From assembly GCF_000299365.1 (NCBI RefSeq), contig NC_018655.1, forward strand, positions 960,001-992,000: a stretch of DNA of 32,000 nucleotides. The letters run 5' to 3'. Within the stretch, counting starts at the first letter, position 1. Each line of letters starts with the position of its first letter. Origin of the DNA: Candidatus Nitrosopumilus koreensis AR1. GTDB taxonomy: Archaea > Thermoproteota > Nitrososphaeria > Nitrososphaerales > Nitrosopumilaceae. The notes beneath the pieces are model-generated. The model was not told where the DNA came from. It saw nothing but the letters and a program-made list of their open reading frames with translations, and searched no databases. The position numbers and the translations under genes were made by a program. Shown one piece after another: positions 3,659-4,745 of this stretch.

Positions 3659-4630
3659 CTATGGTTTGTACTCTTCGGTAATTTCCTTAACGATTCCTGC
3701 TGCGATAGTTGCACCCATATCTCTAAGGGCGAATCTACCCATCTCAGGGAACTCTTGGAATGTTTCAATACAAGTTGGTCTTACCGGTCTGATTTTTACA
3801 ATTGCAGAATCCCCAACTTTGAGGAATTTTGGATTCTCTTCCTCTACTGCACCAGTTGCTGGATTGATCTTTTGTAAGAACTCAGTAACTGTTGCTGCAA
3901 CTTGTGCAGTGTGTGCGTGCATTACTGGAGTGTAACCAGGTGCAATTGCTGTTGGGTGATGAATTACAATGATTTGTGCTTTGAATTCTTTTGCAACTTT
4001 AGGAGGAGCGTCAGGACTTCCCAGAACATCTCCTCTTTTGATATCTTTCTTCTCAACACCTCTAAGGTTGAAACCAATGTTATCACCTGCTTCTGCAGAT
4101 GGCATCTCTTGGTGGTGAGTCTCAATAGATTTGATTTCGCCAGGAGCACCAGAAGGCATTACAACAATTTTGTCGCCTGCTTTCATAGTTCCTGTCTCAA
4201 CTCTACCTACTGGAACAGTACCAACGCCAGTGATGGTATAAACATCTTGGATTGGCACACGTAGTGGTTTTCCAACTGGTTTTTCTGCTACAGTAAAGTC
4301 ATCAAATGCTTCAAGTAGTGTTTTGCCATTGTACCATGGCATGTTCTCGGATTTTTTAACCAAGTTGTCGCCTTTCCATCCAGAAACTGGAATGAATGGT
4401 ACGTTTTCTAGTTTGTAACCTACAGATTTAACTAATTTTTCGCCCTTCTCTTTGGCTAGTTTGAATGCTTCTTCAGAATAGTTGCTATCATCCATCTTGT
4501 TGATTGCAACAATTAGTTGGTTTACACCTAAAGTCTTGAGCAAGAATGCGTGTTCTCTTGCTTGACCACCTGCAGCAATTGCAGTATCGGTTTCACCTTC
4601 TTTTGCTGAAAGTACTAAGACTGCTGCGAC
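3659..4630 (-). pseudogene. tuf: translation elongation factor EF-1alpha, 5'-truncated (G1-G3 motifs missing)
   Basis: EF-1alpha similarity runs from [46 protein letters not shown] (G4 NKMD) through domains II and III to the stop at 3659. Above about nt 4630 the frame reads unrelated sequence and hits an in-frame TAG at 4679-4681. There is no P-loop (GHVDHGKST) or DAPGH. The first canonical in-frame start is TTG at 4543. Confidence 0.75.
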
Positions 4631-4745
4631 TGCGTGTCTGAGGGCATTTATTACTGTTATGAATTTTTGAAAAAAAATCTAAAATTTTTCAATTAATTTC
4701 AGATCAGAAGACTTTGCTAAAAGCACATAAATCAAAGGGACAAAA

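Follow-up and report, generated by a model that had tools for sequence, protein, structure and literature searches.

An apparently truncated EF-1alpha gene at an unmarked contig join in a Nitrosopumilus draft sequence

The DNA analyzed here, a stretch of 32,000 nt of Candidatus Nitrosopumilus koreensis AR1 (NC_018655.1, positions 960,001 to 992,000; hereafter the window), carries an EF-1alpha gene without its 5′ end, and we are highly confident that this truncation is apparent only. The window abuts the tail of AJVJ01000027.1 and the head of AJVJ01000028.1 across an unsequenced gap of ~333 nt. The two contigs are true genomic neighbors, and the gap between them takes in the EF-1alpha start codon together with codons 1 to 110. 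The truncated gene is thus not a real feature, no evidence supports a deletion, a pseudogene or a split gene, and the EF-1alpha gene of the AR strain is almost certainly intact. A preliminary description of the window, made from its sequence, had given the lead to an internal deletion with a possible pseudogene or split gene. That reading is not supported, its breakpoint, 4628/4629, being a record boundary. The assembly problem that the same description kept as a fallback was essentially right, and takes the form of two abutted contigs.

In the window, the EF-1alpha open reading frame lies on the minus strand, ends at 3659 and has its first usable start at a TTG at 4543, with 202 nt between this TTG and the fbp ATG at 4746. 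By translation, recognizable EF-1alpha homology begins at position 4627 (AAVLVL), next to base 4628, the third base of codon 110. Extended upstream, the same frame is interrupted by a TAG at 4681-4679. The window EF-1alpha has no P-loop, switch I or DAPGH, and its Pfam match to GTP_EFTU starts only at position 85 of the 188-position profile. The remaining part is that of a regular elongation factor. It carries G4 (NKMD) and what follows in the G domain, and domains II and III are complete; the Pfam matches to D2, D3 and eEF1A_C (PF03144, PF03143 and PF22594) have E-values from 2e-20 to 5e-37. Hence, of the traits of the EF-1alpha/EF-Tu translational GTPases, the window shows G4 (NKxD), domain II and domain III and lacks the G1 P-loop (GHxDxGKS) and G3 (DxPGH). 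The Nitrosopumilus context, with S10 directly downstream and fbp divergent upstream, is also present, in the same order as in the loci L001-L011. The G1 and G3 motifs are missing from the window sequence but probably not from the gene of the organism. The late TTG start, the in-frame TAG and the missing P-loop and DAPGH, all reported in the preliminary description, can indeed be seen in the sequence. Its estimate of 105-110 missing codons was accurate, the alignment giving codons 1-109 plus two bases of codon 110. The features of the region are listed in Table 1.

Table 1. Features around the 5′ end of the EF-1alpha gene, in window coordinates.
Feature	Position	Strand	Remarks
Ribosomal protein S10	3339..3647	-	Pfam PF00338; directly downstream of EF-1alpha
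EF-1alpha (aEF1A/tuf), 3′ part	3659..4628	-	Third base of codon 110, codons 111-432 and stop
Join of the AJVJ01000027.1 end to AJVJ01000028.1 base 1	4628..4629		Unmarked assembly gap; 333 nt at this place in the sister assembly
fbp-tuf divergent intergenic region	4629..4745		117 nt; without the last 4 nt of the tuf leader
Fructose-1,6-bisphosphate aldolase/phosphatase, fbp (FBPase_3)	4746..5891	+	Pfam PF01950, E=3e-152; intact, divergent

That two records were concatenated is deduced from exact coordinates. By exact string comparison, window positions 1-4628 are the last 4,628 bases of AJVJ01000027.1, and positions 4629-9891 are bases 1-5263 of AJVJ01000028.1. Base 4628 is the final base (14041) of AJVJ01000027.1, a contig of 14,041 nt, and AJVJ01000028.1 begins 117 nt upstream of fbp. 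The two are consecutive records and both belong to the draft assembly GCA_000328925.1, whose source sample is a marine-sediment enrichment metagenome. The join reads ...ACGCAGT and then CGCAGCAGTC..., no spacer separates the two sides, and the window contains not a single N. Since one record ends and the next begins at the junction, there is no observation of a continuous DNA molecule that carries it. As a whole, the window is a composite of AJVJ01000027.1 9414-14041 (calculated) and AJVJ01000028.1 1-27372 (calculated; 1-5263 checked directly).

The deposited annotation has the same limits. Read from 4627, the EF-1alpha frame gives a 322-aa product; an exact look-up found a single record of it, a partial gene cut off by the end of AJVJ01000027.1. 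A look-up of the 294-aa open reading frame that starts at the TTG found no called gene on record. A protein identical to the fbp product of the window is encoded, according to an exact protein look-up, on AJVI01000001.1 and AJVJ01000028.1 and on those two records only. These records also bear on the possibility that an assembler collapsed 333 nt inside a single deposited contig. Such a within-contig misassembly was listed in the preliminary description and would be consistent with the lack of Ns at the join. The two sides are, however, separate records, AJVJ01000027.1 and AJVJ01000028.1, and neither contains the junction, so that we consider a collapse of this kind extremely improbable.

The sister assembly supplies what the window lacks. 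AJVI01000001.1, from Ca. Nitrosopumilus sp. SJ (PMC5767755), is part of GCA_000328945.1, and there a 432-aa EF-1alpha adjoins fbp. From 4628 to 9891 it matches the window with 100% identity, and over 1-4628 its sole difference is one 2-nt homopolymer difference. AJVI01000001.1 is continuous across the site, where it has 333 extra nt (3551-3883 of the SJ locus, L011; in record coordinates, about 53787-54119). Read along the gene, this extra stretch comprises 4 nt of leader followed by codons 1-109 and two bases of codon 110, and it encodes GHIDNGKS and DAPGH. The restored EF-1alpha starts MADKPHLNLIVTGHIDNGKSTT and is 432 aa long, made up of 110 missing and 322 present residues. Alignment with five Nitrosopumilus genomes likewise shows the window to be without one clean block of 333 nt, and BLASTN against the loci of relatives gives two collinear blocks with ~333 reference nt skipped between them. 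Both sides of the site thus lie at record boundaries and a related assembly runs continuously across it, as is the case for an assembly gap between adjacent contigs. By the terms of the preliminary description itself, about 320 additional nt at the junction would have refuted it and pointed to an assembly error; a flank-identical assembly has 333 nt there. With an intact gene between identical flanks in the sister assembly, the truncation is an ordinary artifact. The tuf-rpsJ unit of SJ and that of the window share residues 111-432, S10, the divergent fbp and the upstream intergenic element; they differ in that the window is without the 333 nt with the start codon and codons 1-110, which fall in the inter-contig gap.

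A true 333-nt deletion in the AR strain, removing the start and G1-G3 and leaving a pseudogene with a functional copy elsewhere, would also produce a gene with no start, an in-frame TAG and no P-loop, and this appearance of the window is all that speaks for it. The breakpoint matches two record ends to the base. A genuine deletion would be assembled through as one contig and would not leave two contig ends, and the gene is whole in the sister genome, whose two flanks are identical to those of the window. In the related genomes examined, there is no second tuf at this locus. Moreover, the junction does not lie within continuous, directly sequenced DNA, and no start-codon remnant was found upstream of it, as a deletion pseudogene should have. 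The junction was also found in no independent sequence, which is weak evidence. A 37-nt junction sequence had no matches in genome and metagenome collections, and a flank-only control 33-mer had none either. Since this control, which is present in the AJVI and AJVJ records, was unmatched, the collections do not hold the strain and the negative results for the junction carry no weight. Taken together, we regard a real deletion as very unlikely. A microhomology-mediated event, for which the GCAGTC on both sides was considered, was rejected as well; the junction does not fit a deletion between these repeats, and such an event is needless given the record boundary.

The preliminary description drew attention to an ATG at 4647-4645, which reads MPSDTQSQQS* in another frame, and took it for the original start codon joined out of frame to the body of the gene. 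In a multiple alignment of the intergenic region (A1), comprising the window and four relatives (L010, L002, L003 and L009), TAATAAATGCCCTC, which includes this ATG, is invariant in all five sequences. The true tuf start, ATGGCAGATAAA / ATGGCAGATAAACCACAC (MADKPHLNL), is located 24 nt downstream of the ATG, within the missing block. Because TAATAAATGCCCTC is kept in the relatives and the true start lies in the missing block, we assign the ATG, from the aligned sequences, to a conserved non-coding element and not to a start-codon remnant. The original-start interpretation cannot be maintained, as the element sits upstream of intact genes in every compared relative. Across Nitrosopumilus genomes of about 80-90% identity, the intergenic region as a whole (4629-4745; A1 columns 22-142) has changed less than much of the coding sequence on either side. 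Its long invariant stretches include CTTTGATTTATGTGCTTTTAGCAAAGT and the one from TTCAAAAATTCATAAC to TAATAAATGCCCTC. The region is probably a shared bidirectional promoter and leader. An Rfam scan of the whole window, intergenic region included, returned no RNA family at the gathering score. The residues FFQKF... encoded upstream of the join were considered as degraded EF-1alpha (cf. AFQKFE) and rejected; they belong to the conserved intergenic region and are in frame by chance.

The order of genes is well conserved in the genus. The tuf-rpsJ pair is the usual arrangement, and tuf followed by S10 is also found in L001-L010. Ten Nitrosopumilus genome loci were retrieved with an exact look-up of the S10 protein, and in each of them fbp and tuf are divergent and S10 comes after tuf. 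EF-1alpha is 432 aa long in nine of these ten loci and is called as 466 aa in the remaining one, L010. This call (L010 4589-5989, CP010868.1) reaches into the conserved intergenic region and appears to have an over-extended start. The comparison also bears on a split EF-1alpha, with the N-terminal half of the G domain encoded elsewhere and a C-terminal product of 294-322 aa expressed separately from this locus. In principle, translation from the TTG at 4543 might yield a 294-aa product. The break would nevertheless separate G3 from G4 within the G domain, no split gene occurs among the compared relatives, and just upstream there is the ordinary conserved intergenic region, minus the last 4 nt of the leader. 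With a record boundary at the junction, a split gene is also superfluous, and its probability is close to nil.

Why the contigs end at this place may be found in the composition of the sample. According to PMC4010524, two Nitrosopumilus genomes were present in the AR enrichment metagenome, AR1 with about 99% ANI to SJ and AR2 with about 80% to AR1; the assembly required >98% identity and >40 bp of overlap, the authors removed contigs under 5 kb, and Mauve was used to align the contigs to N. maritimus. The Mauve alignment fits with neighboring contigs having been deposited in consecutive order. We compared SJ with AR2 (L002, CP003843.1) across the region. Their identity is 94% over the missing 333 nt, 86% over the rest of the EF-1alpha gene and 87% over the intergenic region. 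The longest exact runs shared by SJ and AR2 (80, 62 and 38 nt) are all confined to the gap and come within 3-4 nt of both edges, and the zones dense in mismatches start exactly at the two contig ends. A block common to the co-assembled AR1 and AR2 might act as a repeat, at the borders of which the contigs of both strains would stop, and a short collapsed leftover contig would then be lost to the 5-kb filter. On this circumstantial evidence, the block of highest likeness between AR1 and AR2 probably explains the contig break. Alternatively, the AR1-type population might truly vary in structure at the 5′ end of tuf, e.g. through a rearrangement or deletion in a subpopulation, and this variation instead of the similarity to AR2 might have broken the assembly; we hold this to be highly improbable.

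The case resembles the partial genes at contig ends known from draft and metagenome assemblies. As there, a partial product runs off the end of one contig and the next contig begins just upstream, and it is in the missing block that the two strains of the sample are most alike. The contigs here are joined without an N spacer, in which this case differs from an otherwise identical kind. Its biological importance is nil, since an essential gene merely looks truncated. Features around 4628/4629 should not be taken as continuous DNA. In general, windows taken from draft assemblies may cross unmarked contig joins that imitate deletions, pseudogenes or gene fusions, and contig boundaries should be masked or flagged before such windows are read.

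A separate observation concerns a small C2H2 zinc-finger gene on the plus strand (2920-3118). The homopolymers at about 2925-2937 read T6A6 in the window and T7A7 in the otherwise identical SJ, and this 2-nt difference shifts the reading frame. In SJ, the protein reads LGFFKKIKCSICDKKF... and is 65 aa long, the same length as in AR2, L003 and L007. In the window, a stop follows the first 11 codons, and all that is left is a 44-aa open reading frame with a TTG start (2981-3115) that lacks the first Cys pair. The frameshift is probably a homopolymer sequencing error of the draft and not a real pseudogene.
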